From IMG/VR virus record IMGVR_UViG_3300029705_006930: DNA of 64,000 nucleotides; one strand, given 5' to 3'. This stretch comes from a virus. Its lineage: Duplodnaviria > Heunggongvirae > Uroviricota > Caudoviricetes. Made by a program: the position numbers and the translations under genes. Positions within the stretch are counted from its first letter, which is position 1. Each line of letters starts with the position of its first letter. The notes under the pieces were generated by a model, which was not told where the DNA came from, did no database searches, and worked only from the letters and a program-made list of their open reading frames with translations. This document shows positions 110 to 58,065 of the stretch, piece by piece.

Positions 110-1441
110 CTATATCTCATTTTCAATCTCCTCATCTTCATCGTTATATCGTATCGGACTACCTACGGGAAGCATCTCTAAAAATGCTGCTCCAGGCAAC
201 CAATATTTACTTCCATCATTTGTTCTTTTTGCAACTGAAAAATGTATGTGTGCTATGCGTCCTAAATAATCATCTCTGTGTTCCCAAAATTCTTTGCGTT
301 CTTCATCGCTATATCCAAGAGGCAGCACGACGTTGCTACCTTTATAATCAACTATAAAACTCTGCAGTATATCTTCATTTTCTTTTTTTGTGTAATCAAC
401 TATCATCAAATCTGCTTCATGCATTTGTCTTAGGTATAAGAAACTTTCACTGTTCTGTCGGTATTTATATAAGTCATAATCAAGATTAACTAAAATTCCT
501 GCGTATCCTTTTTCTTTGGCTACTCTGAATGCTTTTAAAATATTTCCTCTGTAACGTCCATTAAATAAAATCGGGGCAAGTTGTATATGTTCGGTAGGTG
601 TAAAATTCGTCTCTAAAAATGTTCGTCGGTCTTTATATATGTTTTTACATGTCTTACGGTTAAATTCTTTCAAAGATAATATGTCATAGATATAAAATAT
701 AATGTCACTTTTATCGCGCTCTGGCAGTCGGACTATCCATCGCTCTTTCATTCGGCGGTCATAAGGGGAGAGGTCTTTTGCATCCTCACCTTTATAAACA
801 AGTTCGCCATCAAATACCACTTCATCAAACGGCAAGTCATTAAATTCCTGCAAGAGTTCATCGAAGCCCTCAAGGACAATGCCGAAGCGTGTATACATTC
901 TTGCTTCGCCACATTCTTTGATAACAGCGCAGCGGGTGCCATTGTACCAACCGGAAACTGTGAACTGTCGCTGACGCACATAGTCTTCGTTACCATAGTA
1001 CAGCCCCGGCATCATCAATGGGATTTCATAAACAGTTCCCGCGCCATATACTGTATTGACCTGTTTGGCTGAAACATTTATTTCAAGGTCTCTCAGCACC
1101 GCATCAATCAAAAAGTCGTGGAGCTCAGCGGGGTAGAGGGTAAGAGAACCATGTATCTTTGCCACAGCTTTTTTATTACCCGCCCCCATATATGTCAGAT
1201 ATTCAAGCAGGTCATCACCTTCGCCTGTCACAAACGGCACAACGTCTTCGGCTGTAATTTCGGACGGCGCCCATTTATCAAAGATAAGGAAACGGCTTAA
1301 CCCAAGACGCGTTTTCCCAAACTGATACAATAAAAAGTCTGTCCACTTGGTATTTGTTGCATTACGGCGCAATATGCGTATTTTTTCATCATAAGATGTT
1401 GTGGCCGCCAACGCATCTGCAATTTGTTTAATTTCGTGTAT
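110..1441 (-). CDS. ATP-dependent DNA ligase-like protein with degenerate catalytic motifs (pseudo-ligase paralog of 55427-56749)
   Basis: Collinear with the ligase at 55427. VVFDGELV (motif III), IIFYIYDIL and the OB-domain end LGYSDEERKEFW are kept. Motif I reads SGWYNGTR (Lys to Trp), motif IV AGILVN (Glu to Ala) and motif V FLYLR. Start is set at ATA 1441, which lies 8 nt after GGGGG; the track's TTG at 1411 has no SD. Confidence 0.6.
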   Translation of the reverse strand: MHEIKQIADALAATTSYDEKIRILRRNATNTKWTDFLLYQFGKTRLGLSRFLIFDKWAPSEITAEDVVPFVTGEGDDLLEYLTYMGAGNKKAVAKIHGSLTLYPAELHDFLIDAVLRDLEINVSAKQVNTVYGAGTVYEIPLMMPGLYYGNEDYVRQRQFTVSGWYNGTRCAVIKECGEARMYTRFGIVLEGFDELLQEFNDLPFDEVVFDGELVYKGEDAKDLSPYDRRMKERWIVRLPERDKSDIIFYIYDILSLKEFNRKTCKNIYKDRRTFLETNFTPTEHIQLAPILFNGRYRGNILKAFRVAKEKGYAGILVNLDYDLYKYRQNSESFLYLRQMHEADLMIVDYTKKENEDILQSFIVDYKGSNVVLPLGYSDEERKEFWEHRDDYLGRIAHIHFSVAKRTNDGSKYWLPGAAFLEMLPVGSPIRYNDEDEEIENEI

Positions 1442-2620: not shown

Positions 2621-3442
2621 CTACCCATTTAATGCGCTGTCAATACTGTCCGCCATCGCATTAATTTCGCCCTGTGTTATTGTAAGGTATGTTTTTGTTA
2701 CGCGCTGGTCACTGTGCTTGTACTTTGCCTGCAAGATGTCCATAACACTGTCGTTGTTCATTGTTTTGCGCGCTGTGTATCCGTATGTTTTGCGCAGTGT
2801 ATGTGTTGCCACGTTCTGTGTGAGGCCCGCCGCCTTTGCACCTTTCTTTAAAATGTCCCACATTTGGTGCAGGCTCATTTGCCCGCCATTGTCACTTTTC
2901 TGGGACTTGATAAGGTAGTCGCTCATTGTATAGTTGCCGTTGAGATGTTCAATGTACATTTCAATGGCTTTTTTTGCGCCCGCTGTTATTTTGTTGCGAT
3001 TGTACTTGCCGGTCTTTTGTTCGTACACATCATAGTAATCTTTTACTGTACCATCCTCATTGAGAACGTCACTGATGCGCGCTCTGAGCAGGTCACTGCC
3101 TCTGTCCCCAATGGTGCAGCCAAACACTACCATCATATAATTGCGGTACTTGTGTCGGCCCCCATGTTCAAGGAAGTAGTTTGCGAGACGCTGAAATTCG
3201 TCCGCGCTGTAAAGAGGCTCTGCACTCTGTGCCTTTTTCACGCCATTGCTTTTGTAAGGCGACGCTGTTCTTGGTGCACGCTGTTTTGGCGCTGGCTTTG
3301 CTGCGGCCATTGCCTGAGCCACTGCATTTGCTATGATGCTCTGGAGCTCGTCCTGTGTCATTTGGAGCTTTGGTGCTGCCGCCTGTGCAGGAAAGTTGAT
3401 TGTATTATTCTGTACGTTTTGTTCTTTTGGCTGAGCGTTCAT
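2621..3442 (-). CDS. int: tyrosine recombinase / phage integrase (small, 273 aa)
   Basis: Catalytic-domain motifs are present: GDRGSDLLRARISDV (Arg), ATHTLRKTYGY (H-x-x-R) and HSDQRVTKTYL (His and the Tyr nucleophile). GGAGG SD. Confidence 0.8.
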   Translation of the reverse strand: MNAQPKEQNVQNNTINFPAQAAAPKLQMTQDELQSIIANAVAQAMAAAKPAPKQRAPRTASPYKSNGVKKAQSAEPLYSADEFQRLANYFLEHGGRHKYRNYMMVVFGCTIGDRGSDLLRARISDVLNEDGTVKDYYDVYEQKTGKYNRNKITAGAKKAIEMYIEHLNGNYTMSDYLIKSQKSDNGGQMSLHQMWDILKKGAKAAGLTQNVATHTLRKTYGYTARKTMNNDSVMDILQAKYKHSDQRVTKTYLTITQGEINAMADSIDSALNG

Positions 3443-13139: not shown

Positions 13140-14540
13140 ATGGCACACACATTTAAAAAATGGATGATAAAAGCCATTCCATATGACAACTTGTTTGACA
13201 TATCGGTGGACTTTGAGAATCCATTCCCGACCGATAATCGTCGCGATGCTACACTCGCGGCTGCATTTCACTGTTTGATTAAAGACAGAATTCCAGAGGG
13301 GGTTAATCGCATTGTAGTGCGTGATATCCACTCATATGACTGCAACGTGAGAGACATTTTTGACTATTATGAGGTTGAAAATGGTTTCAAAAGTTGTATT
13401 TTTTACTACGCAGATTGGGACAATGTGAATCTGCAGAGCAAAATTACATTGCCAAATGAATGGGAAGCTCAGGAAATTGCAAGCAAATTTACTGGATGTT
13501 ATGTTACAAATCACGTATCAAAACAATTGATGGTTATCTTTATTCCGAGCAACTATAACCTTGAAACTTGGCATAGACTTGGTGCATTGTTACCAAAATA
13601 TCCAGTGCTCGAGGATATGTGGGCAGCAAAACCACTTACCGAAGATGAACTCAAGATGTTGAAATCACTGTCAACAGACGGTGTAGATTTTGACACATAT
13701 ATAAAAGCGTGGATTGCGACACTCGACCTGCGCACATCCGCAATCAAAAAAATGTTCAACAAATTCATTATTGATAACATCGAGGAACAGATACGCAATG
13801 CCGAAGATAGACGTAGAAGCCTTGAAAACAATATCACAGACTATGCTGCGAGACTGGCAAGGCTGTATAGCGACCTTGACGGTGTTATTGAAATGATAAA
13901 CCGTCTTATGATAGGTGATGACACTGTTGAAGAAAAAGAAAAGAGACTTATCGAATTCTTGTTAACAAACAAAAATGTTGAGCCAATCAGACGTCGCAAT
14001 GACCGCGTTGAATTCAATGTTCACGCAGCAATTGACTGTTGGGATAACGATATGTTCTCATCTTATATCAATAATCACAACAGTTTATTGTATCGCCATA
14101 CAAGCAGATATTCATATGACCAGTTGAAACGTTTTTATGAGCAGGCATTGTTTGCCGGTCGCTTTAAAATTCAGGGCATTGCTAAATTTGAAATTGCAGC
14201 AACAGGTAATGTGAGACCAATTTCAAAAAATGGGCATTGGCCATCAGCTGAAATCGAAAACTGTATTCCAAATACACATGTGGATAAATTCACTTGTATT
14301 GGTAATCACAGACGTATGCTGGATGATGCTGCAAAAATTCGTGACTATGAACAGGCAATTTTGATTGCTATTCAGATTACACAGTCAGTTAACTGGTCGG
14401 ATGGTGCAGTTATGAATCACTTTATTCCTGAAGTGTTGCACTGTGAACGTCCAATTCTTACAGACAGAACAGGCAATACATACACTGTTGCACAGGTAAT
14501 AAGCATACTTGATGCCGAAATAAAGGAGGTTGAAAAATAA
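13140..14540 (+). CDS. hypothetical 466-aa protein of the Ubl cassette (central coiled coil, function unknown)
   Basis: GAGAGGAG SD. Overlaps the JAB gene as ATAATG. Confidence 0.7.
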   Translation: MAHTFKKWMIKAIPYDNLFDISVDFENPFPTDNRRDATLAAAFHCLIKDRIPEGVNRIVVRDIHSYDCNVRDIFDYYEVENGFKSCIFYYADWDNVNLQSKITLPNEWEAQEIASKFTGCYVTNHVSKQLMVIFIPSNYNLETWHRLGALLPKYPVLEDMWAAKPLTEDELKMLKSLSTDGVDFDTYIKAWIATLDLRTSAIKKMFNKFIIDNIEEQIRNAEDRRRSLENNITDYAARLARLYSDLDGVIEMINRLMIGDDTVEEKEKRLIEFLLTNKNVEPIRRRNDRVEFNVHAAIDCWDNDMFSSYINNHNSLLYRHTSRYSYDQLKRFYEQALFAGRFKIQGIAKFEIAATGNVRPISKNGHWPSAEIENCIPNTHVDKFTCIGNHRRMLDDAAKIRDYEQAILIAIQITQSVNWSDGAVMNHFIPEVLHCERPILTDRTGNTYTVAQVISILDAEIKEVEK

Positions 14541-15475
14541 TGAAACCAATAAGATTGACCGATGATGTAAAAGCGGCTATTCTTGATAAATTTGCAAAAC
14601 AGCTGAGCACGGTTGTACGTGCTTCAACTATTACATTCACACATACGCCAACAGTGGTAAGCACACCGTTAGGCAAAGATGAAAAAGTGCTGATTACTTA
14701 TACAGCAGAAGCATTCCGCAAGCAGCAGATGCTTATTCAGAGTTTTGACAGTGAAGTGGCTTGGCACGGTGTTGTTGAACGTGAAGATGCAAAGCATTTT
14801 ATTATTACAGATATCGTAGTATATCCCCAGACTGTTACCGGCTCAACTGTTGAGATGGACGAAGACAAATATGCTCTTTGGACAATTCAGTTCGGTCGTG
14901 AACACGGCGAAGAAACATTCCAGAAACTGCGTATGCAGGGACATAGCCACGTGAATATGGAATGTTTTGCAAGTGGTACAGACTCTAAACACCAGGATGA
15001 CATCTTGGCAACAACTGACCCAAATGGGTTCTATATTTTCATTATTGCCAATAAAAAAGGCAAATTCTGGAGCACTATTTTCGACCTCGAAGCAAATGTT
15101 CAGTATGAAAATGCTGACATCGAAATCGAGTATGAGGAAGATGAGTACGATGAATTTGTAAGTGCAGCAGAAAGTGTGGTTGTAAAAAAGACTTATACAC
15201 CACCTTACAACTATGGCAATGGCTATCACAACAACGGAGCAGGGTATTCATACGGGGCAAGCGCTTATTCTCAGAAGCCACCTCAGACTCCGCCTATGCC
15301 AGTGCTTCCGACAAATACACAGCCAAAAACAAGCACAAACGAAACAAACACAAAGGCAAACACAAACACAAAAAAGGACGATAAATCCATTGAAGAAGAT
15401 ATCACCAATCTTATTCAGATGTCATTGAACGATATGGAATGGGATGAAGTTGGTGGATGGACAAGCAAAATGTAA
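14540..15475 (+). CDS. JAB/MPN+ (JAMM) metallopeptidase with Pro/Thr/Asn-rich C-terminal region
   Basis: DSEVAWHG (Glu) followed by HSHVNMECFASGTD, which fits H-x-H-x7-S-x2-D. Confidence 0.8.
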   Translation: MKPIRLTDDVKAAILDKFAKQLSTVVRASTITFTHTPTVVSTPLGKDEKVLITYTAEAFRKQQMLIQSFDSEVAWHGVVEREDAKHFIITDIVVYPQTVTGSTVEMDEDKYALWTIQFGREHGEETFQKLRMQGHSHVNMECFASGTDSKHQDDILATTDPNGFYIFIIANKKGKFWSTIFDLEANVQYENADIEIEYEEDEYDEFVSAAESVVVKKTYTPPYNYGNGYHNNGAGYSYGASAYSQKPPQTPPMPVLPTNTQPKTSTNETNTKANTNTKKDDKSIEEDITNLIQMSLNDMEWDEVGGWTSKM

Positions 15476-15484
15476 GGAGAAATT

Positions 15485-16174
15485 ATGGACTTAAGTAAAT
15501 CACTTGACTGGTTTAATCCAGACAGCGTTTCGGAACGCATACATATTATCGGATGCGGTAGTGTAGGTAGTACAGTTGTGGAACTGTTGGCAAGATTCGG
15601 TCTTACAAAGTTCACTCTGTATGATTTTGACCTTGTTGAACCTCACAATATCGCAAACCAGATGTTCAGAAAAACGGACATTGGTAAAACAAAAGTTGAA
15701 GCATTGCAGCAGATTGTATGTGAAATCAATCCAGAGGCGGGCAAAGATATTAAACTTGAACCAGAAGGTTGGCACGGACAGCAGTTGTCTGGCTATGTAG
15801 TTCTTGCTGTTGATAGCATTGAATTGCGTAAAAAGATTTGTGAAGGTTTGCAGATGAATATCTTTGTTAAAGCTGTGTTTGATTTCCGTACAAGTTTGCT
15901 CAACGCACAGCATTATGCAGCCAATTGGCAGGACAAAAAACATCGTGATGACCTCATTGCAACAATGCAGTTCACCGATGAAGAAGCTGCGGCTGAAAAC
16001 CCAGTATCAGCGTGTGGTGTAACACTTGGTGTCGCACCAACAGTAAGACTGATATGCACACTAGGCGTAAGCAATATGATGAACTTTTTCAGAGAAAAGA
16101 AATTGAAAAAAGTTGTATTGGCAGACGCATTTAATTTTGATGCTGACCCTATGGTATTACCTATGGGTCAATAA
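15485..16174 (+). CDS. ThiF/MoeB/E1-like adenylyltransferase
   Basis: IIGCGSVGSTVVELLARFGL...LYDFDLVEPHNIANQ is a Rossmann GxGxxG and adenylation motif. Confidence 0.8.
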   Translation: MDLSKSLDWFNPDSVSERIHIIGCGSVGSTVVELLARFGLTKFTLYDFDLVEPHNIANQMFRKTDIGKTKVEALQQIVCEINPEAGKDIKLEPEGWHGQQLSGYVVLAVDSIELRKKICEGLQMNIFVKAVFDFRTSLLNAQHYAANWQDKKHRDDLIATMQFTDEEAAAENPVSACGVTLGVAPTVRLICTLGVSNMMNFFREKKLKKVVLADAFNFDADPMVLPMGQ

Positions 16175-16216: not shown

Positions 16217-16500
16217 ATGGCAAGCTTTTGCTGTTAGCAGAAGTAAAGAAATGGTAGAGAACATAGAGGCAGGCGCTTAAGGAGCACGCTGAGGTGATTC
16301 CTAAGTACTGCAGCTTCTTGCATCCGACGAGCTCTGAAAAGGTAGGTTTAACAGGAGGATTGGATTACTTACAAGTGAAATTAACCAGTTCAAACCGTAA
16401 AGCTCATCTGAAATTAACGATAAATCCCAGATTTGCATCTCTTTTATCCGGGAATGAAGGGCTTAAAACTATAGCTAGACCATAAACAAGATAGGGAGGA
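16217..16500 (+). ncRNA. structured non-coding leader upstream of the RT (module A)
   Basis: Hairpin at 16225-43, GAAATGGTAG at 16248, enclosing stem 16217-24/16317-23. No SD-led ORF. Confidence 0.5.
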
Positions 16501-16504
16501 CATT

Positions 16505-17860
16505 ATGGTTTATATCACATATCCAGCACCTAACAAATTTCATCAGATTACATTTGAAGAAATGATGTCGGGCAATGTTAATACAGATAAATTAAGAATT
16601 TTAGGCGGACATAATACGCTTACTTTGCATCTTAACGATGTACCTGCAAACTTAAAAGGTCAGACTTCTGTACGCAAAATGATTGCAGATTTGCAGTATT
16701 TTGTAGGTGTATATTATGACACACTGATGCCACAGATAAAAGAATTTGAGAAGCTTTCAGATGCTCAGCGTCGCAGCGTCAAACAGCGTGACAAGATTGA
16801 AAATTATTTTGAACAGATGGGCGCAACTGCAAATGATGAAGACTTGCAGAAAATCACTGAACAGGTAGATGCGCTGCAGTGTGAAGTTGCAGAACAGCAG
16901 TATAAATATGCTTACTATACATTCGATTTGCGCAAAAGTTCAGCGCCGGAACACATTCCATTGTGGCGACTGCCAAAAGAATACAGACGTACAATCAATG
17001 CTCCGAACATACATCTTAAAAATGCGCTATATGAACTTAAAGAACTGTTTGAAAATATGATGATACGTACATATCATACTGCATCATTTGCGTATGTTAA
17101 ACATCGTGGAACTTTGGATGCTGTAAAACGTCATCAGAGCTGGGAAAGCAAATGGTTTGCAAAGTTTGACTTTTCAGATTTCTTTGGTAGCACAACAATT
17201 GACTTTGTTATGCAACAGTTCTCTCAAATATATCCGTTTAATATGATTTGTGCATATAAAGATGGTAAAGAAGCTCTTTATAAAGCATTGCAGTTGTGTT
17301 TTTTGGACGGTGGACTTCCACAGGGCACACCTATTAGTCCTCTCATCACAAACATAATGATGATACCATTTGACCACGCAATGTCAAAAGCTCTTAAAGA
17401 ATTTAAATATCCAAACAAACACGGTAGTGAACGTTTTGTGTATACAAGATATGCTGATGACCTGCTTATCAGTTGCCGTGTGGATTTTAAAGTGGAAATT
17501 ATTCAGGCATTTATTCTGGAAACTTTAAAATCAATGAATGCGCCTTTTAGCCTTAACGTTAAGAAAACTCGTTACGGTTCTAGTGCAGGTAGCAACTGGA
17601 ATCTTGGGGTGATGCTTAACAAAGACAATAAAATTACAATCGGTGCAGAAAACAAGCGCAGACTTAAAGCTTCTTTGAATTCATTTATCCTTGATATGAA
17701 GAATGAAAAACCTTGGGATATTTCTATGGTGTATAGACTCAGAGGTCAGATTTCTTATTATCGTAATGTGGAAAGGGAAGCAACAAATAACATCATTGCA
17801 GCGATGAACACAAAATATGGTGTTGATGCAGAAGCAATGATGAAATCTATTATAAGTTAA
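16505..17860 (+). CDS. reverse transcriptase, retron/UG(DRT)/Abi-like, with about 190-aa N-terminal extension
   Basis: KFDFSDFF, LPQGTPISPLITN, YTRYADDLLIS, KKTRYG, LGVML and a thumb-like RLRGQISYYRNV occur in order. GGGAGGA SD. Confidence 0.85.
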   Translation: MVYITYPAPNKFHQITFEEMMSGNVNTDKLRILGGHNTLTLHLNDVPANLKGQTSVRKMIADLQYFVGVYYDTLMPQIKEFEKLSDAQRRSVKQRDKIENYFEQMGATANDEDLQKITEQVDALQCEVAEQQYKYAYYTFDLRKSSAPEHIPLWRLPKEYRRTINAPNIHLKNALYELKELFENMMIRTYHTASFAYVKHRGTLDAVKRHQSWESKWFAKFDFSDFFGSTTIDFVMQQFSQIYPFNMICAYKDGKEALYKALQLCFLDGGLPQGTPISPLITNIMMIPFDHAMSKALKEFKYPNKHGSERFVYTRYADDLLISCRVDFKVEIIQAFILETLKSMNAPFSLNVKKTRYGSSAGSNWNLGVMLNKDNKITIGAENKRRLKASLNSFILDMKNEKPWDISMVYRLRGQISYYRNVEREATNNIIAAMNTKYGVDAEAMMKSIIS

Positions 17861-17879
17861 TTTAATTTTTATATATTGA

Positions 17880-18790
17880 ATATCACAGTCATTGTGAAGT
17901 GTTGATGTTATCGGCACTAACGAAATGGTAAGAAAGTATGGCAGGAAGGCCCGCAGGTTCATGATGAAGACGCGTGCGAGCTTACAGCTCCAGCATAAAA
18001 ATTAGAAATGCTGGTACAATGAAAAGGAAGAAAATCATGAACGAAAGCCATACTTTCCAACATCCACAAAACCACGAATTTAAAACGCTTCATTACTCCG
18101 CGACCCTCCGCCAGGAGGGCCCGGGCGCGGTAAAGCGTCAAATAAATAATTGAGAATATATAAAAAAACTTTATTGAATATCTTTAAATTTGTACATAAA
18201 TTTAAGAACTGTTGCTGTTAGCAGCAGTGTCAAACGAACAGGATAAATAAAGAAATACAAATTTCTTTATTTAAATAACTTCTTAGCGTCGTAAGGCGCG
18301 ATGCTCCGACATCGCTCATGACGACGCCAAAGTTATTGAGAATAAAGTTAAAAAAATAATAAGAAAAATAAACAGTGTATATTTGCATAGCAAAGCTATT
18401 GATGTAATCAGTAGTACAGAAATGGTAGGAAAGATTACACGGGACGGTGTCGCCGGTGAGGAGCCACCTCCTTTGCAAACCCCTGCAATATTTCTAAAAC
18501 CTAATTAAAACTATGTCCGAATGGTCAAACATAACAGGAGGACTGAGAAACATCACCTGAAGGATACCAACTGAACCCCCAGTTCAGATGACACGACAGC
18601 TGGAGAAATCTAGACCCATGGGATGGTGATTCAACATTAAATTACAATTCAGACTGTTTATTGCTTTATAGTTTTTGCCAAGCTACGAAAACTCCAAATA
18701 ATGAGTAGTGTGTGACATAAAAGCCAAGCCTCGTCAACTCCCTTTCGGGGCTTGGTAAAGACTATAAAACAAACAATTTAAGTAAAGGAG
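17880..18790 (+). ncRNA. about 0.9 kb structured non-coding region downstream of the RT (modules B, D, C plus long hairpins)
   Basis: Module hairpins at 17899-917, 18209-27 and 18396-414. Long hairpins at 18086-18138, 18245-72 and 18273-18335. No convincing ORF. Confidence 0.5.
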
Positions 18791-18797
18791 AATATAT

Positions 18798-24224: not shown

Positions 24225-24536
24225 ATGAAGATATGGGTTGATGATATAAGACCTGCCCCAGAAGGATATGTATGGTGCAAAAGTGTAAACGAAGCAAAGA
24301 TAGTTATAAAACATCCTGACTTATACGCAACTAGAAGACAAAGGAATATTGAAGTTATAGATACAGACCATGACGCTGGGGCATATGCTTATGACGGAGG
24401 AGACTACATTAAACTTTTAGATTGGTTAGAGGAAACAAATAGGAATTATCCAATCAGAATTCACAGTATGAATCCTGTCGGAGTTGCAAATATGAGAGCC
24501 ATTATTCAGAAAAATGGTTGGAAGGAGATTTTATAA
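24225..24536 (+). CDS. hypothetical protein, possibly a receiver-fold (cREC-like) domain
   Basis: The pattern IWVDD...IDTDHD...IHSMNP recalls small receiver-like phage domains. Weak call. Confidence 0.55.
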   Translation: MKIWVDDIRPAPEGYVWCKSVNEAKIVIKHPDLYATRRQRNIEVIDTDHDAGAYAYDGGDYIKLLDWLEETNRNYPIRIHSMNPVGVANMRAIIQKNGWKEIL

Positions 24537-24871
24537 TGTTACAAGCCAAAGAAATCTATGAAAATGCCTTAGCCCTTAATCCGAAATCAAATCCTGATAA
24601 ACCATATAAAGAGAGTTATGTCGTTGATATGATAAATCAGGTTTTAGAACAATCACAGAGATACAATCAGCGTATAAGGACACTAAAGAGAAAAGATGAA
24701 CAACCGGGCGTGCCATATATTAAAGGCATACATAACGAGATTGATTTTGAAATCGAATTTTATGCCCCATTGAGTTATGGTCTAGCAGCATTGATTGCAG
24801 AAGACCTTGGCGATACGCGTCTTGGGCTATTGTATCAAAAACAATTTATGACTTTGCTTACGATGTTTTAA
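24536..24871 (+). CDS. hypothetical protein
   Basis: ATG 24536 after GGAAGGAG. Confidence 0.6.
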   Translation: MLQAKEIYENALALNPKSNPDKPYKESYVVDMINQVLEQSQRYNQRIRTLKRKDEQPGVPYIKGIHNEIDFEIEFYAPLSYGLAALIAEDLGDTRLGLLYQKQFMTLLTMF

Positions 24872-24908: not shown

Positions 24909-25262
24909 ATGCAAGAGGTTAGATTTTTACTTGATTTTTATGTGCCTTTTAACAGGTGGAAAATAGCTTTGATGAATGTTCCCGAAGAACAATATAAAAT
25001 CAATCCAGGTTTAGGAATATCTCTTACACAGTTTGCATATGATGAACACTTGTCCGAAGGTGGTAATCATTATGAATTTGCGTGTCAGGTGCCAAAGCGA
25101 TTTTATAGATTGCTTAGATTACATCCGGATTGGGAGCCTGTAGATGCTGTAGAACTTGCGAGAATGCTTGAAGGTTATATTAAAGCTGATTGGTCTATTG
25201 AATATAATCCTCCAATTATTACATATGAAACAAGCTTTGAGGAACTGATGGGAGGAGTTTAG
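24909..25262 (+). CDS. tail-family member 1 of 13
   Basis: C-terminus ITYETSFEELMGGV. N-terminus LLDFYVPF. Confidence 0.7.
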   Translation: MQEVRFLLDFYVPFNRWKIALMNVPEEQYKINPGLGISLTQFAYDEHLSEGGNHYEFACQVPKRFYRLLRLHPDWEPVDAVELARMLEGYIKADWSIEYNPPIITYETSFEELMGGV

Positions 25263-25263
25263 T

Positions 25264-25590
25264 ATGGAAGAAATGAGTTCAACCAGACTAGCCATTACTC
25301 CGCTGATTGACAAAACACGATATGGATGCGGAGTTGTAGGTGCAGGATATCCATGCGAAATTACATCAGATGCCGTTGAATTTATTAGTAGCATAGCAAC
25401 AGAAACATATACGACGGGAACAGGCCGTGTGGATTATACAATATCACATCCAGCATCCATATATAATGATGTCGTCTCTGAAGGAAGATGTTTGACACAA
25501 GCAGTGTTAGATTATATTTTTAATCATGTATTAATCCAAGGTATTGATTATGAAATGAATTTTGAAGAACTTATGAAAGGAGAGCCATAA
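25264..25590 (+). CDS. tail-family member 2
   Basis: C-terminus IDYEMNFEELMKGEP. Confidence 0.7.
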   Translation: MEEMSSTRLAITPLIDKTRYGCGVVGAGYPCEITSDAVEFISSIATETYTTGTGRVDYTISHPASIYNDVVSEGRCLTQAVLDYIFNHVLIQGIDYEMNFEELMKGEP

Positions 25591-26057
25591 TGGAGATACA
25601 GAATTTTTGTGAATATTTTAATATTCCAACCAACGCAGATATCTCTGTACAACGTGCTGATGACCCATTTGAACGAATGCAGATAGTAGCAGAATATTTT
25701 TCAGGTGGTGGTTGTAAATGTGAACATATAATTAATTTCGATATGGCTCTTTTATATGCTCAACCAAATGAGGCAGTTTACTCTATTTTATATATTGCTA
25801 ATAATATGATACTGAATATTCCAAAACAGTTATTTGATGCAATATTTATTGAATCAAATAATTTTGAGACTGCATCAAATATACCACATTATATAGCTGT
25901 ATTCTCACAATCATCAATGAATTTAGCACAACGAAAAACACAAGTTGAGGAATTGATAAAAAAACATCAGGAGATATTGCATAATCATCATATACCAGAA
26001 ATTATATATGACTTGGATTTTGATAACTTAATGATAGGAGGTAATGCATCATGTTAG
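25590..26057 (+). CDS. tail-family member 3
   Basis: C-terminus IIYDLDFDNLMIGGNASC. N-terminus QNFCEYFNI. Confidence 0.7.
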   Translation: MEIQNFCEYFNIPTNADISVQRADDPFERMQIVAEYFSGGGCKCEHIINFDMALLYAQPNEAVYSILYIANNMILNIPKQLFDAIFIESNNFETASNIPHYIAVFSQSSMNLAQRKTQVEELIKKHQEILHNHHIPEIIYDLDFDNLMIGGNASC

Positions 26058-26473
26058 ATTTTTACGAGCATTTTGGATTATCTGAAGATGTTCGGGTAAC
26101 AGCTGAATCTGTAGATGATGAACTACGTATAGTTTGTTGGGATAATGAGACAAAATATATTGTTCCGTTTGATATGATTATCTTGCCAGAGTGGTGGGGT
26201 GATGAAAAAAATGCATATATCCTGACTAAAAATGATACATTTATTCGTATGCCTCATGGTTTGGCTGTAAATGTTTTTGAAAGAGCGCGTGGTGGTTATT
26301 GGCATTATGACAATGATAAATGGGTAGCTGTGTCCTCATGTTATTTAGGTTATGAAAGAATTCAGAAGAAAGCATCTATTTTGCTGCGAAATATAAATAA
26401 TATTTTAATGGAAGAAGATAGTCATAGAAGCTCAATATCTTATGATGTTGAGTTTGATGCATTATTTAAATAA
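26051..26473 (+). CDS. tail-family member 4
   Basis: C-terminus ISYDVEFDALFK. N-terminus MLDFYEHFGL. Confidence 0.7.
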   Translation: MLDFYEHFGLSEDVRVTAESVDDELRIVCWDNETKYIVPFDMIILPEWWGDEKNAYILTKNDTFIRMPHGLAVNVFERARGGYWHYDNDKWVAVSSCYLGYERIQKKASILLRNINNILMEEDSHRSSISYDVEFDALFK

Positions 26474-26483
26474 AGGAGAACAA

Positions 26484-26813
26484 ATGAATATAACATTTTA
26501 TATACATAGTACAGGGCGTCAATATTTTTTAACTGCGCTGGGCGGTGCAGCCGTGCGTATCAGTCAAAATATGTATACAAGATTACAAAGACATTCTGTG
26601 GATGCAGGCGATGAAATGGTTAACCGAAGAGTTCGCACCAAACGTATTTTAAATATTGAAGATTTAAATTTCGAGAACAATTATAACTACAATACATATC
26701 GTTTGTATGATTTCTTAGAAAGAAATTACAGGTCATGGCGTAACTACACCACAATCACCTCAGAAATTGTTTATGACGAAAATGCTCTATCTTGGGACGC
26801 TCTTTTTCAGTAA
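26484..26813 (+). CDS. tail-family member 5 (divergent tail)
   Basis: C-terminus IVYDENALSWDALFQ. ATG 26484 after AAAGGAG. Confidence 0.65.
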   Translation: MNITFYIHSTGRQYFLTALGGAAVRISQNMYTRLQRHSVDAGDEMVNRRVRTKRILNIEDLNFENNYNYNTYRLYDFLERNYRSWRNYTTITSEIVYDENALSWDALFQ

Positions 26814-26825
26814 AGGAGATAATAT

Positions 26826-27185
26826 ATGAACGAACATAAACGGATTTTACCAGAAGAGGGTGCCTATGAGGAACGATTTGCTGTTTATCCAAACCCTAAA
26901 GAACCAACTACATATGTGATGGATGTAAGGTCGCTGACAAGATACAATCCAGCGAGCAGTTTGGTTATTGATGATGCAGTTTTGGAATCACTCAGTATAT
27001 TGTCTTACCACAGTTTTGAAGCTGTACGTCCAGATACAACAGTATATTGCATGTTTATAAAAGATGCAGAAAAAGACAATTTTTTAAAAGACCCTGTGCA
27101 TTGGTTGCTACAAACACAAGTTATGAATACTCCAAGAATGGAATATGAGTTGGATTTTGACACACTGATAGGAGTGATAAAATGA
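26826..27185 (+). CDS. tail-family member 6
   Basis: C-terminus MEYELDFDTLIGVIK. Confidence 0.7.
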   Translation: MNEHKRILPEEGAYEERFAVYPNPKEPTTYVMDVRSLTRYNPASSLVIDDAVLESLSILSYHSFEAVRPDTTVYCMFIKDAEKDNFLKDPVHWLLQTQVMNTPRMEYELDFDTLIGVIK

Positions 27186-27646
27186 GAAACTTTGAAGAAG
27201 TTTTCCCAATTGATTCTAATATTGAGTGTTATATAGCGCATCAAACATTGGTGAATTTGAAGTTGGCAATAGCAAATAAATATGACACATCACAAATAAT
27301 GACGACAATAGCTTTTGATTATGTGATACGTATATTCCCGGCGTCCCATCTTGATAACCCAATTACAATTATTAGTATAAATGGGCGCAAATATTGGTTA
27401 TCTTATAAGTTATATACCAAAATATTTATGCGCAGCCGCAGAAATCAGCGTGTGTTGTTTAATGAAGACAATCAACAAGAGGATATTGGACTGGTTATTA
27501 TGATTAGCAATAGTCCGGTGCATTTAGACAACGTATCGGATATTGTAACGGAAATTATTGAGCAAAAATGGTCAGGGCCCATAGGCATAATGAATGAGTT
27601 ACAGCAAATTGAATATATAGGGAGTTTTGAAGATTTATTAAAGTAA
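27182..27646 (+). CDS. tail-family member 7
   Basis: C-terminus IEYIGSFEDLLK. N-terminus MRNFEEVFPI. Confidence 0.7.
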   Translation: MRNFEEVFPIDSNIECYIAHQTLVNLKLAIANKYDTSQIMTTIAFDYVIRIFPASHLDNPITIISINGRKYWLSYKLYTKIFMRSRRNQRVLFNEDNQQEDIGLVIMISNSPVHLDNVSDIVTEIIEQKWSGPIGIMNELQQIEYIGSFEDLLK

Positions 27647-27658
27647 GGAGATGATTTT

Positions 27659-28144
27659 ATGGCACACATAGATTTAGGCAATGAATATTATACACATGTT
27701 ATCTCGGAAATCAGAATTACGCCTCCAGAATCTGTAAATGATATGTTGATTCCAAGCAGAGCAATTCATTGTAACCCTTATACAGACAACGTATGGGCAC
27801 AAATCAGATTTCACTTACATAATCAATTATGTCACCGTGGCTATATATATTGGATTGAAAATGCAATATCTAAACCAGATGGTATGGTGTATTTAAATTT
27901 GTCTCCATATCCTGTATTAGGTCGTGATAAGCAATGTTGTATGAGTAAAGAATTGTTTGAAATGCTTCTTGAATATGCAAGAAATATCAAGCACTATGGT
28001 AGCTTACACAGTACTTGTGATTGGCAAAGCAGGGAATATACAATGCTGAAAGTGCGCGAGACAATTTCTGCAATGCTTAAAAAAATAGAATATGCAATGG
28101 ATTTTGATGAGCTCTTAGGAGGTCAGAAATATGACAGCGATTGA
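27659..28144 (+). CDS. tail-family member 8
   Basis: C-terminus IEYAMDFDELLGGQKYDSD. Confidence 0.7.
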   Translation: MAHIDLGNEYYTHVISEIRITPPESVNDMLIPSRAIHCNPYTDNVWAQIRFHLHNQLCHRGYIYWIENAISKPDGMVYLNLSPYPVLGRDKQCCMSKELFEMLLEYARNIKHYGSLHSTCDWQSREYTMLKVRETISAMLKKIEYAMDFDELLGGQKYDSD

Positions 28145-28499
28145 TTTATTAACACAAAAGGATGTACCTAAAGGAGCATATCGAGTATTGATAGTATGTG
28201 ATGCCACTATAGGTTTTGTGTGTAAGCATTATGCATTGATAGAAAATGAAAACAAAACTTGTCAATATATTATCGAGTGTCAAATACAAGGGGATTTGGA
28301 AAAGTTTTATAGTGCCACATATCAAGGCTTGAAGATGGAATTCTATCGGGTTACTACAGTTGAACAGCCTGCAATAACCGAGGATTCACTTGAAATTCAG
28401 AGGATGATAGATTTCTTATTTCAGGTATATCACATAAATTTAAAGTACGAAAATATGTGTTATGAAATTGATTTTGACCAGTTGATGGGAGGAATATAA
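28131..28499 (+). CDS. tail-family member 9
   Basis: C-terminus CYEIDFDQLMGGI. Confidence 0.7.
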   Translation: MTAIDLLTQKDVPKGAYRVLIVCDATIGFVCKHYALIENENKTCQYIIECQIQGDLEKFYSATYQGLKMEFYRVTTVEQPAITEDSLEIQRMIDFLFQVYHINLKYENMCYEIDFDQLMGGI

Positions 28500-28951
28500 T
28501 GTTTGCAACAATGGTAAATGGTGAAAAACATCTGATAACGCAAGTTGATTGGAGGCCTATATTTAATGATGATGGAAAATGTATTGAAAGAGAAATTTCT
28601 ATAAAGTTCGACTATGATGAATCATTGCGAGCAGCAAAATATAGAGTTGGCTGGTTTGTTGATGAGCATGTAAATAACGAAATACAAGTACATTTAAAAT
28701 TGCGTAATGATAAAACAATTCCAGTTATGATTCCTACGATACTCGCAGAAGCAATGGTGGAATATCAACGCAAATTGCAAAAAGAAGGGTTCTGTGGTTT
28801 GGCTACAGGAGCTCCAGAGTGGTTGTTGACATGGTATTCTGAACAACAACTGAAATTTGGAACTGAAAATGTATTTCATTTTAATAGAACAAATGAAATT
28901 AAGACAATGACTTATGAAGTGGATTTATTTGAGGAGTTGATAAACAGTTGA
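28499..28951 (+). CDS. tail-family member 10
   Basis: C-terminus MTYEVDLFEELINS. Confidence 0.7.
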   Translation: MFATMVNGEKHLITQVDWRPIFNDDGKCIEREISIKFDYDESLRAAKYRVGWFVDEHVNNEIQVHLKLRNDKTIPVMIPTILAEAMVEYQRKLQKEGFCGLATGAPEWLLTWYSEQQLKFGTENVFHFNRTNEIKTMTYEVDLFEELINS

Positions 28952-29238
28952 ACAAACAAGATGAAGGATATGCCACACTGGGTGATATGACTGCAATATT
29001 TGCAACCATAAATGACCGGACAGACTATTTGGAACATCTGGCGAATTCATCAGCAGCCCGTATTATGGATATAGAGTCAAAAAGTGATTGTTATATAACT
29101 CAATCTTCGCTATATTGTATGCGCGATGACCTCTTACAGCAGATTAGTGAGCTTCGAGAGACAGTGAACATTTTGCTGGACAAGTATAATGCACTAAACC
29201 CACCTATCAGCTTTGATGAAATGATGGAAGGAGAATAA
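28948..29238 (+). CDS. tail-family member 11 (TTG start)
   Basis: C-terminus PISFDEMMEGE. Confidence 0.6.
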   Translation: MNKQDEGYATLGDMTAIFATINDRTDYLEHLANSSAARIMDIESKSDCYITQSSLYCMRDDLLQQISELRETVNILLDKYNALNPPISFDEMMEGE

Positions 29239-29239
29239 T

Positions 29240-29530
29240 ATGCATTTTAATGAACATCTTCGTAGGGTATGGGAGCGAACTACTGCTGCAATAACTACAT
29301 CTGACCATACGGAAAATACAGTGACTTCGTATGTTACAACAAGAAGTGTTCCTGATTATTGTACTACAAGCTGGACAGCACAACCATCATATAAACAATG
29401 GGTACATAAAGATGATTTGGATGCATTAAGATATTCCCTTGGCTGGGCAACGTCAAATCCGGCAGTAAAAGAGCCAGTATCACCGAAATACGATATGGAG
29501 TTTGAAGATTTGTTCAAGGAGGAGACATAA
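29240..29530 (+). CDS. tail-family member 12
   Basis: C-terminus KYDMEFEDLFKEET. Confidence 0.7.
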   Translation: MHFNEHLRRVWERTTAAITTSDHTENTVTSYVTTRSVPDYCTTSWTAQPSYKQWVHKDDLDALRYSLGWATSNPAVKEPVSPKYDMEFEDLFKEET

Positions 29531-29763
29531 TGCCGCCGAGACCAACATTTTTTGATGAGTTTACAGAAAATATAGTGCACAACACAATGCGAGAATTATC
29601 TGAATATGCAGCCCACTCCACGTTATCAATGGAAGACTCATTAGCTGATTTGAAAGAAACGTTGAAACGACTAAACATAAGTATTAATTTTGTAGAAACA
29701 GAATCTTTGACAGAAATTACATATGAGGCAGAATTTGAAGATTTAATGAAAGGAGATAAGTAA
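29530..29763 (+). CDS. tail-family member 13
   Basis: C-terminus ITYEAEFEDLMKGDK. Confidence 0.7.
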   Translation: MPPRPTFFDEFTENIVHNTMRELSEYAAHSTLSMEDSLADLKETLKRLNISINFVETESLTEITYEAEFEDLMKGDK

Positions 29764-30311
29764 TGTATTTTATTGGTGATACACATTTTGGCCATAAAAA
29801 TATTTTGGCCTATGATAACAGGCCTTTTAGTTCTATTGAACATCATGATGGCGAAATAATTCGACGCTGGAATAATAAGGTTACAGATATGAATGCAGAC
29901 GTTTATATGCTTGGTGATGTATCTTGGTATGGCGTTGAAAAAACAGTTGAAATTTTGAATCAGTTGAATGGTAAGAAGCATTTGATTGTGGGCAACCATG
30001 ACCATGCATTGCTTAAATCTAAAGCATTTAGAGATTGCTTTGTTGAAATTGCGGACTATAAAGAATTATATCTTGACAAAAAGACCGCAATTGTTTTGTC
30101 ACATTATCCAATTCCTACATATCGTAACTGTTACCACGGTTGGTATCATTTTTATGCTCATGTACATAACGGTTATAAACATAATATGATTTTAAAAATT
30201 AAGCAGCAGATGTGTGACTTGTATCAGAAACCACATAATATGTTTAATGTTGGAGCAATGATGCCGTGTTGTAATTTTGCACCGGTCGCCTTGGACGAAA
30301 TTGTGAGGTAA
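29763..30311 (+). CDS. calcineurin-like metallophosphoesterase
   Basis: GDTHFGH, GDVSWYG, VGNHDH, SHYP and HVHNG occur in order. Confidence 0.8.
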   Translation: MYFIGDTHFGHKNILAYDNRPFSSIEHHDGEIIRRWNNKVTDMNADVYMLGDVSWYGVEKTVEILNQLNGKKHLIVGNHDHALLKSKAFRDCFVEIADYKELYLDKKTAIVLSHYPIPTYRNCYHGWYHFYAHVHNGYKHNMILKIKQQMCDLYQKPHNMFNVGAMMPCCNFAPVALDEIVR

Positions 30312-38353: not shown

Positions 38354-38420
38354 AAAACCTATTATCAAAAGATGGTTTGTGTGTTATTATTATAGTAGAA
38401 AACAGGAAAGGAGAAAGTGT

Positions 38421-38861
38421 ATGGGATTTAAGTTTATACCTACAACAACAATTCCAAAGTCGGGCGAAATTCGGCTTGGATATGTAAATGCAGATAATGG
38501 CAACCATAAATATACTGGTATCAGACCATATTTGATTGTATCAAACAATGTGTACAATAACACATCAAACCACGCGGAAGTAATTCCTTTTACAACACGT
38601 AGATTTGACAGTAAAAATCCTGTACACATTCAGTTTCCAAAGGGTGAAGTTAAAGGCTTAAATGAAAATTCAACATTAGTAATTGAAGGCCGCACAACTC
38701 TGCCACATAACCAATTAACCGAACCAATTGGTTATTTCAATAGTGATAATTGGAAGAAGGCTGCGACTGGTCTTCTGTATCAGAATCCTCATATTAAATA
38801 TGCCTTTGATGAAGGAGTGCACAATACATTATTTTTTAATCATTTATTGACTGCTAAATAA
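38421..38861 (+). CDS. MazF/PemK-like endoribonuclease toxin fold
   Basis: GIRPYLIVSNNVYN...VIPFTT...PVHI...GLNENSTLVIEG matches the PemK pattern. Confidence 0.7.
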   Translation: MGFKFIPTTTIPKSGEIRLGYVNADNGNHKYTGIRPYLIVSNNVYNNTSNHAEVIPFTTRRFDSKNPVHIQFPKGEVKGLNENSTLVIEGRTTLPHNQLTEPIGYFNSDNWKKAATGLLYQNPHIKYAFDEGVHNTLFFNHLLTAK

Positions 38862-38919: not shown

Positions 38920-38938
38920 ATAAGATGAGGTGAAATAC

Positions 38939-39931
38939 ATGGATTATACTCGATTAATTGATGAATTTTTAGATGCAGTTGCAAGAAATGAAAATCCAAA
39001 ACAGCATTATAATTATATAAAAGTATTTTCTATCATTAAGAACTATGTTATTGAGAAAAATAAAAGCCTGGAAGAAATGAACCTAAAAGAGCTGGATGAA
39101 TTATTTTTCACTCGCTTCACAGGCAGAGCAGATAGTATCAAGCGCATAGTCACTTATTGTCGTCGATATATAAGATGGCTGCAAACAACGGGCCATTTAT
39201 CTTTTAGGGACGCTGAAAGTCATATTTTATTTGACTTAAGATATTATAATACAAGTTATATTACATCACATAAATTGTATCGTGCAGCTAAATTAAGCAG
39301 TGTGTTTTTTAGTACCGAAGAATATGTTGATTATATGTCTACTGTTTTCGATGAAAAATTAACACAAGGCGACAACACTCGTTATTATACCGATATCGCA
39401 GTTTTTTATTTAAGCTGGTTGGGATTTACAATTGATGAAATGCTGAAATTGAAGAAAAATGATTTTGATTTTTCATCGCGAACTATTGCCGGCAAATATA
39501 TCTCTGATGAGCGAATGCTTACCTTTTTAAACAAGTATAACCAATCTGATACTTATGAAAAATTACGCAAAGGCCATAATTTCACAACAGAAGAATATGT
39601 TTATAATGAATATGAGTTTTTAAAAGGGAAAACGACAGCTTTAAATGAGATGGCCATTTATAACATATTCCGAACAACACGACAACGTATCAATGAATTT
39701 AACAGGGATAATATAGATAATCAAATTGAAAATAAAGTTGATTTCAACAATATTAAAAAATCTGCACTGTTTGAATATATTTATACAGTCCAGAAGATTT
39801 CATATTTTGAAACAACAACTTCTGGTGTTGCTCTTTTCGCTTCGTTTATTAAAGATGAAATACCGACAAGTGCAATTATGCCGTTAATTGAAGATTATAA
39901 TCTATGGGTAGAAATTAGAGGCTCGCTGTAA
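38939..39931 (+). CDS. integrase-like protein lacking catalytic residues (SAM-like N-domain; likely DNA-binding or regulatory)
   Basis: The N-terminus resembles a tyrosine-recombinase core-binding domain. LSWLGFTIDEMLKLKKNDFD aligns to the box I region but with Thr in place of Arg. No HxxR or Tyr motif follows. Confidence 0.5.
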   Translation: MDYTRLIDEFLDAVARNENPKQHYNYIKVFSIIKNYVIEKNKSLEEMNLKELDELFFTRFTGRADSIKRIVTYCRRYIRWLQTTGHLSFRDAESHILFDLRYYNTSYITSHKLYRAAKLSSVFFSTEEYVDYMSTVFDEKLTQGDNTRYYTDIAVFYLSWLGFTIDEMLKLKKNDFDFSSRTIAGKYISDERMLTFLNKYNQSDTYEKLRKGHNFTTEEYVYNEYEFLKGKTTALNEMAIYNIFRTTRQRINEFNRDNIDNQIENKVDFNNIKKSALFEYIYTVQKISYFETTTSGVALFASFIKDEIPTSAIMPLIEDYNLWVEIRGSL

Positions 39932-56749: not shown

Positions 56750-56765
56750 TAGATGGGGGAATAAA

Positions 56766-58065
56766 ATGAACGTAAAAGATTGGCTTGGAGAAGAAAATCA
56801 GCTCGGCATTGATATTGCTACAAAAAAATATATTAAAAACGAATCCTTTGATGAATTTATCGGAAGAATTTCAAATAATAATCCAGAAATTAAAAGAATT
56901 ATTTTAGAAAAGAAATATCTGCATGGTGGCAGAACACTCAGTAACTACAATACGGGTAATGGTGCATCCACATCCAACTGTTATTCAAGTGGTTACTGCC
57001 CGGATGATACAGCAGGTATTCTGGAGCTAAATAAAAATATAGGTCTTACATATAAAGCACAGGGTGGGCAGGGTTTATCTCTGAGTAAAATCCGTCCAAA
57101 GGGCTGTAAAATCAGCAAAGGTGGATATGAAACTGATGGCATCATTCCATTTATGCAGATGTTTGATACTACAACAGCAAGTATTTCACAGGGCGGTTCA
57201 AGAAAAGGAGCTCTGATGATGTCTCTTGACTGCTGGCATAAAGAGGTTAAAGATTTTATCACAATCAAAACCGATACAAATCTTATTACAAAAGCAAATC
57301 TGTCAGTTGAAATTGACGATGAATTTATGACCTGTGTCAGAAAATATTATGATGAAGGCTTGGTATTTGAAAAACAAGTAAACTTTACTTATGATGGCGG
57401 TGAAACCAGATATATGGTGAAACCTATTGAAGTATATCAGCTGATTTGTAAAACGGCTCATGAATATGCTGAGCCAGGCATTATCTATACTGAGCAGTTT
57501 CGCAACTATAATTTAATGCAGTACGATGATGAATATCAGATTGTAACTGGTAACCCATGTGGAGAACAGCCTTTGCCACAGAATGGGGCGTGCAATCTGG
57601 GCAGTATTAACCTTGCAGAATTTGTAAAACACCCATATTCATCAGAATCAGAGTTTGATTTTGTAGATTTCCGCAATACAGTAGAAATTGCAATCAGAGC
57701 ATTGGATGACGTACTGGATTATGGTGCTGAACTTCATGCTTTGCCAGAACAGAGAGAAATGGCAAAGAATTATCGCAATATAGGTCTTGGCATTATGGGC
57801 CTTGCTTCAATGCTTTTTAAGATGGGCATTAAATATGGCAGTGATGAATCTCTCCATCTTGTAGATACCATTGGCTATACAATGTTTAGAACTGCTTTGG
57901 AGACATCTACTGAGCTCGCAAAAGAAAAAGGAACTTTCCCAAAATATAAAGATGTTGTTTTTGATGCAGAAATTATTAAGGCACATTTTAATGCAGACGA
58001 AATCGCAGAGCTCCGCAAATATGGTCTTCGCAACTGCTCATTGCTTTCAATCGCTCCAAGTGGGT
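56766..58065 (+). CDS. nrdJ: class II (B12-dependent) ribonucleotide reductase, exon 1
   Basis: GGRTLSN, NPCGEQPL and LLSIAPSG. ATG 56766 after GGGGGAA. Confidence 0.85.

Follow-up and report, generated by a model that had tools for sequence, protein, structure and literature searches.

A tandem array of divergent small proteins with a shared C-terminal peptide in an SPbeta-like prophage

Introduction

What keeps one short peptide at the C-terminus of thirteen neighbouring phage genes whose products otherwise hardly align? The question is raised by positions 24909-29763 (+ strand) of a 64,000-nucleotide stretch of DNA from IMG/VR record IMGVR_UViG_3300029705_006930, a stretch that is referred to here as the window and that represents the early/replication arm of a large SPbeta-like prophage. 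An original prediction, made from the letters of the sequence, had described thirteen genes with shared tails in this region and had taken them for a diversified family that it did not recognise. All thirteen open reading frames (ORFs) and their C-termini were confirmed and the tails were present as it had listed them. The genes, numbered g1 to g13 in their order, are consecutive and tightly packed and encode proteins of 77-161 aa. The edges of the array are sharp: neither the 111-aa ORF directly upstream (24536-24871, + strand) nor the calcineurin-like phosphoesterase gene directly downstream (29763-30311, + strand), whose start overlaps the g13 stop codon, has the tail.

Results

The C-terminal tail and its carriers

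The tail follows the consensus [IM]-x-Y-[ED]-x-x-F-[ED]-x-[LM]-[MFLI], is 11 residues long and is located 1-8 residues ahead of the stop codon. The core pattern had been given correctly in the original prediction and the length had not, since an I or M is found two residues N-terminal of the Y in 10 of the 13 members. The exceptions to the consensus are g5, in which the Y is displaced by a 2-residue insertion, g10, which has a 1-residue insertion, and g11, which is without the Y.

From the left end of the array, g1 (24909-25262, 117 aa) carries the tail ITYETSFEELM (25218-25250) followed by GGV and the stop codon, and g2 (25264-25590, 108 aa) carries IDYEMNFEELM (25543-25575) followed by KGEP. 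The tail of g3 (25590-26057, 155 aa) is IIYDLDFDNLM (26001-26033), then IGGNASC, and that of g4 (26051-26473, 140 aa) is ISYDVEFDALF (26435-26467), then a single K. A degenerate tail, VYDENALSWDALF, is found in g5 (26484-26813, 109 aa), with its core at 26775-26807 and a final Q. The longest ORF of g5 begins at 26442; the start is most likely 26484 rather than 26442, because an AAAGGAG Shine-Dalgarno (SD) sequence precedes 26484 and the same start is called in some related contigs. Next, g6 (26826-27185, 119 aa) displays MEYELDFDTLI (27138-27170) and GVIK, g7 (27182-27646, 154 aa) IEYIGSFEDLL (27608-27640) and K, and g8 (27659-28144, 161 aa) the chimeric tail IEYAMDFDELL (28085-28117) and GGQKYDSD. 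The tail of g9 (28131-28499, 122 aa) is MCYEIDFDQLM (28455-28487), then GGI, and that of g10 (28499-28951, 150 aa), with its one extra residue, is TYEVDLFEELI (28910-28942), then NS. At the right end, g11 (28948-29238, 96 aa), which has a TTG start, ends in NPPISFDEMM (29194-29226) and EGE, g12 (29240-29530, 96 aa) in PKYDMEFEDLF (29483-29515) and KEET, and g13 (29530-29763, 77 aa) in ITYEAEFEDLM (29716-29748) and KGDK. All thirteen genes are on the + strand.

When the 64 kb were translated in six frames, the strict pattern Y[ED]xxF[ED]x[LM][MFLI] matched eight times, in every case within the array and 1-7 residues from the stop. A loose core, [FLWIM][ED]x[LM][MFLIV], was sought in the C-terminal 18 aa of the ORFs in the window; of the 175 ORFs on the + strand with 45 aa or more, exactly the 13 array genes had it, and of those on the - strand none. 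In its DNA form the tail pattern was found three times versus 0.00 expected. In a motif-free scan, the C-terminal 18 residues of neighbouring ORFs were scored by their best ungapped match over 9 residues. Array members had up to 9 partners each by this measure; for ORFs in the rest of the window, in SPBc2 and in MT835469.1 (the best DnaE relative) the number never exceeded 2.

An N-terminal [DN]F-x-E-x-F motif had been assigned to at least four members. It is clear in g3 (NFCEYF), g4 (DFYEHF) and g7 (NFEEVF) and approximate only in g1 and g13. The motif is itself tail-like, and some members carry a tail-like copy at the N-terminus; the DNA encoding NFEEVF in g7 is similar to that of the g2 tail.

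The tail is conserved as a peptide

The conserved columns of the tail displayed codon periodicity, with codon positions 1 and 2 fixed and a near-random wobble position. The variation of the Leu and Asp/Glu codons that had been noted earlier was borne out by third-position entropies of 1.7-1.95 bits, and the tail Leu is encoded by both the CTN and the TTR codon families.

The array was compared with three variant copies of it, L124, L135 and L138, which come from other assemblies. The g3 alleles were 53% identical and the g10 alleles, the divergent one being in L135, 47% identical. The bodies of these g3 and g10 alleles showed approximately 115-120 non-synonymous differences, and their tails, over 11 codons, showed 0 non-synonymous and 0-2 synonymous differences. 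About 9-10 non-synonymous tail changes would be expected per divergent allele, and the probability of finding none is approximately 1e-4 for each. Across all orthologue sets variation was seen in 6.3% of tail columns and in 19.4% of body columns (Fisher p = 3e-5). Of the tail columns nine varied: these had I/M at position -6, D/E at the acidic positions and, as the last residue, L/F or I/M, or else they were unconstrained sites; the substitutions at constrained positions were all within class (I/M, D/E, L/F). The proportion of synonymous differences (pS) in the tail was slightly below that of the body.

The RNA of the junctions between the genes showed no excess of structure over shuffled sequences or over other operon junctions (mean z 0.22 versus 0.32 in the controls), and an Rfam search of the junctions gave no match; an RNA-structure account of the junctions was rejected on these grounds.

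Because of the codon periodicity, the allele data, the in-class changes and the lack of excess structure in the junction RNA, we conclude that the tail is kept as a peptide. The original prediction had argued for selection on the peptide rather than only on the overlapping ribosome-binding site of the next gene, and the random wobble, the allele tails and the contrast in variable columns agree with it. The tail is not conserved at the nucleotide level alone, as is evident from its periodicity and from the synonymous-only changes between alleles.

The tail is part of a fixed gene junction

The junctions range from -14 to +12 nt: the genes overlap at 8 of them, a single base lies between the genes at 2, and a spacer of 10-12 nt at 3. 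A good SD is found at every junction, which is consistent with translational coupling. In 13 of 13 genes, 26-33 nt (20 in g10) separate the core's F codon from the start codon of the next gene, and this distance is independent of the stop codon, which may lie ahead of the SD (g4, g5, g7) or 7-14 nt into the next gene (g3, g8). The five-codon core directly abuts the SD of the next gene, and in g10 the GAGGAG codons double as the SD of g11. Because SD, spacer and next start follow the core, the 1-8 residues behind it (for instance GGV, KGEP, IGGNASC and GGQKYDSD) are read-through; being encoded by these elements of the next gene, they also form the least variable columns (2.2%). Since the tail core ends directly ahead of the next SD, the tail, the SD and the ATG form a fixed junction unit.

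Gene loss and divergence within the array

A fourteenth gene, g8b (139 aa), is located between g8 and g9 in L124 and L135 and ends in YDVEFDELLGGKKYDSD. In these two copies g8 (here g8') ends in YEIDFDDLSIM, and in the window g8 ends in YAMDFDELLGGQKYDSD. The tail of g8 in the window combines those of g8' and g8b in a precise chimera, and the crossover lies in the common TTTGATGA; g8b was therefore removed from the window array by a tail-to-tail recombination that left a working tail behind. In a short contig (L140, 1-575; hybrid protein P0042) the N-terminal 45 residues of g4 are unrelated and the C-terminal half and tail are kept. The gene upstream of this hybrid g4 is without a tail, and L140 represents either an array that has recombined or an assembly chimera. 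In L124 (9280-9673) g1 is frameshifted, and the residual 63-aa ORF still ends in the tail; the frameshift is either that of a pseudogene or an assembly error.

The ratio of non-synonymous to synonymous differences per site (pN/pS) was 0.46-0.52 for the bodies, and roughly 0.35 without the divergent alleles, whereas the flanking genes had 0.08-0.18 at similar pS. With a body pN/pS of about 0.5, two alleles of 47-53% identity and one presence/absence gene, the description of a diversified family was appropriate. Judged from these sequence comparisons, the bodies are fast-evolving and single members can be dispensed with.

Relationships between the bodies

The bodies were compared by hhalign after removal of the last 16-20 residues. 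Homology of the bodies was evident for g3-g4 alone (hhalign 78%, E 1.7e-5; full-length identity 22%), and no similarity was found for 89 of the 91 pairs. A hidden Markov model (HMM) of g3/g4 run against the ORFs of the window ranked the other members no higher than unrelated ORFs. Beyond this, the start of g1 has 77% DNA identity to the start of g4, and the C-terminal 50 aa of g1 and g9 are similar. The bodies had been called hardly alignable by eye, and with g3-g4 as the only pair found by hhalign they are hardly alignable by profile either.

Distribution of the family

The thirteen members of the window and g8b gave nothing above the curated cut-offs in a scan of Pfam-A and PHROG, with best E-values of about 0.001-0.1. 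When g3, g10 and g8b were searched against 5.8 billion proteins, only their own prophage lineage was found, and an exhaustive search of 1.84 billion representatives with the g3/g4 profile gave 3 matches, all from the same lineage. IMG/VR contained no relatives of the array members, a query of three close tails was likewise empty, and the DNA of the region had no match in 50,697 phage records. A degenerate DNA pattern of the tail gave at least 120 listed matches in IMG/VR, which were single chance ones; among the matches listed, one unrelated ORF (L103) has a tail-like end. The family was thus rightly left without a name, and no homologues lacking the tail were found elsewhere in these searches. 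As judged by homology searches with g3, g4, g10 and g8b, this is a new family, confined to a single prophage lineage.

The prophage lineage is probably from a rumen Firmicute. Relatives of the downstream phosphoesterase at 49% identity were found on an IMG/VR contig and in a rumen Erysipelotrichaceae metagenome-assembled genome (MAG), both without the array, and this MAG holds the nearest genome-derived relative of the phosphoesterase. The IMG/VR relative (L001, 70-2074), which is of the same type as the MAG locus (L144), displays another array of six genes encoding proteins of 93-128 aa, which share a different C-terminal segment, roughly Y-[DN]-x-L-x-x-x-x-x-D-V-[ML]. Arrays with shared endings may be recurrent in this phage group.

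Genomic context

The replication module of the prophage contains a Sak4-like ATPase, DnaB, primase, PHP, DnaE, ThyX, a split ribonucleotide reductase (RNR) and a dUTPase in the order of SPBc2, and the window terminates with a large serine recombinase (62420-64000). A 208-kb contig (L142, 10800-20498) continues beyond the recombinase with genes for PTS EIIC, an M28 peptidase, a RluA-like protein, MerR/TipAS and RecD2. Since these are bacterial genes, the window is part of an integrated prophage and not of a free jumbo phage.

The gene for the large RNR subunit is split into 56628-58085 and 59278-60246, and the insert encodes an HNH endonuclease (58424-59182); the split resembles the intron-interrupted RNR genes of SPbeta. 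A gene for a MazF/PemK-like toxin (38379-38861) adjoins that of a MrpR-like regulator (38930-39931), which was recognised by a match to its N-terminal core-binding domain (E 7e-5), MrpR itself being a regulator of the SPbeta type. ATP-dependent DNA ligase is encoded by two separate genes, at 110-1411 (- strand) and 55427-56749 (+ strand), and a tyrosine integrase gene (2621-3442, - strand) is close to the left end of the window.

Upstream of the array and of the 111-aa ORF, a cyclic-phosphate-processing receiver-like (cREC) protein without the tail is encoded at 24225-24536 (+ strand). The cREC gene was 74% identical between L135 (6993-7340) and the window, with a pS of 0.64, and stands amid neighbours of 95-99% identity, which suggests an allelic replacement adjoining the array. 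A role for cREC has been predicted (PMC7824862), and by sequence the cREC protein and the phosphoesterase that flank the array are predicted counter-defence enzymes.

Further upstream, a reverse transcriptase gene (16505-17860) is retron-like, with RT_II-A as the best PADLOC model (E 2e-41). A 43-nt repeat is found three times around it, at 16222, 17896 and 18393, and a 937-nt stretch free of ORFs follows the gene. An Rfam search of the reverse transcriptase region (16222-18797) gave no match; an unannotated retron non-coding RNA may be present there. An origin of the hypervariable g3 by a diversity-generating retroelement was considered and rejected, as no template/variable repeat pair joins the reverse transcriptase to the array and the enzyme is retron-like. 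A ThiF/E1-like protein (15485-16174) has domain matches to the E1 part of the PADLOC E1-E2 models, and the two ORFs just upstream of its gene (13140-14540 and 14540-15475) are large and without a family match. On the basis of the cREC protein, the phosphoesterase, the retron-type reverse transcriptase and the E1-like gene, the array is placed in an accessory/conflict region.

Discussion

An interaction peptide as the favoured reading

We favour the reading that these are early accessory proteins of one tandem, cassette-like family and that the tail serves them as a shared interaction peptide. We give it a probability of roughly 45%, and it is offered as tentative. The array may be depicted as a set of small acidic proteins of an SPbeta-like temperate phage, presumably expressed early and in an accessory role, most likely in host takeover or counter-defence. 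Their bodies would diversify quickly and be gained, lost and swapped, while the 11-residue C-terminal peptide stays. Through the tail, acting as a common module for protein-protein interaction, all members would be recruited to one partner, which might be a host or phage hub and possibly a protease or an assembly. Recombination within the unit of tail, SD and ATG would then add or remove whole genes and leave a functional tail each time. Docking of the tail onto a hub is a reasonable proposal by analogy with the terminal docking motifs discussed below. In favour of the reading are also the confinement of the motif to the array genes, the selection on the peptide, the mostly unalignable and fast-evolving bodies, the modular junctions with their one tail-to-tail recombination, and the predicted counter-defence enzymes on either side of the array.

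Several observations weigh against this reading. The scan of window ORFs revealed no clamp gene, and the tails do not conform to the bacterial clamp-binding consensus. The AlphaFold2 (AF2) model of g3, with a mean predicted local distance difference test score (pLDDT) of 75 and a predicted template modelling score of 0.72, consists of five strands, a helix, a strand, a long helix and the tail, and the tail is a beta-hairpin at a pLDDT of about 60 and not a free peptide, which leaves open that it belongs to the fold. A single common fold is hinted at by two findings: the order of secondary-structure elements is the same in the g3 and g8 models, and a helix motif, defined post hoc, occurs in 5 of 14 members and in 0 of 118 other ORFs. 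Nor are the residues ahead of the tail clearly distinctive, with 5.4% Pro versus 3.6% in the body and 16.5% versus 19.4% variable columns, and a Pro-rich disordered linker ahead of the tail was rejected for want of statistical support in these figures.

The tail as a possible remnant of a common fold

Some of these observations are those that a structural explanation would draw upon. The members would then be one highly diverged family of tandem paralogues, of whose common fold the tail and the [DN]FxExF motif are the last parts still recognisable. As a beta-hairpin or helix at the terminus, the tail would be required for folding or for homo- or hetero-oligomerisation of the members rather than for binding an outside hub. 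The tandem arrangement of the genes agrees with this, as do the homology of the g3 and g4 bodies, the 77% DNA identity of the g1 and g4 starts, the likeness of g1 and g9 over their last 50 aa, the tail hairpin of the g3 model, the element order common to g3 and g8 (five strands, helix, (strand), long helix, tail) and the post hoc helix motif; the lack of an obviously disordered linker is not at odds with it. Common descent of the longer members is plausible on these models. However, lengths vary from 77 to 161 aa, and the three short members (77-96 aa) are too small to share a fold of the g3 type. Body similarity is undetectable in 89 of 91 pairs, and a terminal element that survives the loss of every core element would be unusual for a purely structural segment. 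The models are also of uneven quality, as the pLDDT of the g3 tail is below that of its core and the g8 model is of low confidence (pLDDT 40), too poor for a fold search. We regard a structural tail as unlikely on balance, yet as the main competitor.

A speculative extension: the tail as a plug-in module

The interaction reading may be carried further. Like a tool-belt, the tail/SD/ATG unit would be a plug-in module by which any inserted ORF acquires the same docking peptide, so that a fast-changing group of 13-14 effectors would be directed to a single hub in host or phage. RNA polymerase, a protease adaptor or a clamp-like hydrophobic cleft might be that hub, and the effector set would in that case be shuffled by a built-in mechanism, recombination between the repeats that encode the tail. 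This extension is speculative, and in our judgement it is doubtful that it holds in full.

Less likely roles in degradation, nucleic acid function and packaging

A special case of docking has a protease as the hub: a host or phage protease, or its adaptor, would read the tail and clear the early effectors together later in infection. The tail is shared, C-terminal, and both hydrophobic and acidic, and it is found on many presumably early proteins, as a common degradation signal might be. Known bacterial C-terminal degrons, however, need the very last residues and a free carboxylate, whereas here the core is followed by 1-8 unrelated residues set by the SD and start of the next gene, and no protease link was found among the genes examined. 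We consider a timing degron improbable.

It may also be asked if the peptide is a mere by-product of a nucleic acid element, either a cassette boundary for recombination or an element for translational coupling. The fixed distance from the motif to the next start, the deletion of one gene by a crossover inside two tails at TTTGATGA and the 62-73% identity of the tail DNA copies all fit such an element. The periodicity, the near-random wobble, the use of both Leu codon families, the allele tails that differ synonymously and never non-synonymously, the tail pS just slightly under that of the body, and the unremarkable RNA structure of the junctions without an Rfam match do not, and this explanation is accordingly held to be very improbable.

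Encapsulin cargo-loading peptides and the T4 capsid-targeting sequence are short shared terminal peptides on unrelated small proteins, and a tail with this signature could target the array proteins into a capsid or phage-built compartment for delivery to the next host, but with the array in the early/replication arm, far from structural genes, and no capsid or scaffold genes in the window, the chance of this is very slim.

A number of known signals were compared with the tail and rejected. An ssrA-type degron (LAA-COOH) does not agree with post-core residues that vary in number (1-8) and in sequence and that are read-through of SD and start. The type VII secretion signal (YxxxD/E) is excluded by position Y+4, which is F in 10 members and never D/E, and a WXG-type helical hairpin by the predicted beta-rich structure of g3. 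Ubiquitin-like or double-glycine processing is not indicated, since just 4 of 13 members have GG behind the core, and in these it coincides with the next GGAGG SD. The bacterial beta-clamp motif was likewise rejected, as no tail has a Q or the L-x-L-F spacing.

What a shared docking peptide would mean

If the favoured interaction reading is true, one short sequence opens both an unknown effector set and its common hub to experiment, and a single peptide pull-down could reveal that hub. It would also mean that in a temperate phage of gut/rumen Firmicutes a large effector repertoire that keeps evolving can be organised by short linear motifs, which are well known in eukaryotic viruses and are seen in the clamp-binding tails of T4. 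The junction module suggests a simple genetic route by which new genes could become targeted to the hub. Should the tail be a structural remnant only, the array would be a case of extreme divergence in a tandem family of phage paralogues, of limited wider interest.

Comparison with known systems

The closest parallel to the tail is found in phage T4, where the unrelated proteins gp43, gp55 and, according to a review, gp33 carry at the C-terminus interchangeable sliding-clamp-binding motifs (SCBM) that bring them all to one hub (PMC2988020, PMC7892883). The C-termini of gp43 (SLDFLFG) and gp55 (SLDFLYEAND) share with the array a short hydrophobic-acidic peptide at or near the C-terminus of unrelated bodies, with a few non-conserved residues after it, and the order hydrophobic-acidic-x-L-hydrophobic, which is L-D-F-L-F/Y in T4 and F-[ED]-x-L-[MFLI] in the array. 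The T4 motifs stand behind variable linkers on three carriers scattered over the genome, whereas the array has 13-14 carriers in tandem. The array motif is longer, with I/M-x-Y-[ED] upstream, and its middle residue is polar where that of T4 is aromatic. T4 has a clamp of the gp45 type, and in the array phage no clamp gene is among the window ORFs scanned; the DnaE-type polymerase of the phage implies a beta-type clamp and not one of the gp45 type. The likeness of the tail to the T4 motif would thus be one of analogy and not of membership.

The consensus for binding the bacterial beta clamp is QL[SD]LF or Q-L-x-L-x-L, and that of the PIP box is QxxLxxFF. These too are short hydrophobic peptides, often C-terminal, by which many proteins bind one hub, and the F-x-x-L-hydrophobic spacing of the tail (i, i+3, i+4) resembles that of the PIP box. 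The tail differs from them in having no glutamine, a spacing unlike QL[SD]LF, extra acidic residues and the upstream Y.

With regard to gene order, the hyperplastic regions of T4-type phages contain modular shuffling cassettes with promoter-stem-loop repeats between small accessory genes. In these regions and in the array, short conserved junctions permit gene gain, loss and swap, and here the deletion of g8b is documented. The T4 repeats are non-coding regulatory DNA, whereas the repeat of the array is coding and conserved as a peptide.

Bacillus phage SPbeta (SPBc2) has early operons that consist of many small genes of unknown function. SPBc2 contains no array with a shared C-terminal tail and no homologue of the queried array proteins. 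It resembles the window in its long co-directional runs of small ORFs ahead of the module with Sak4-like ATPase, DnaB, primase and DnaE, in the RNR with an HNH-encoding insert, in the dUTPase, in the terminal large serine recombinase and in the MrpR-like regulator. Conceptually, the array is akin both to shared terminal docking motifs and to tandem arrays of phage paralogues.

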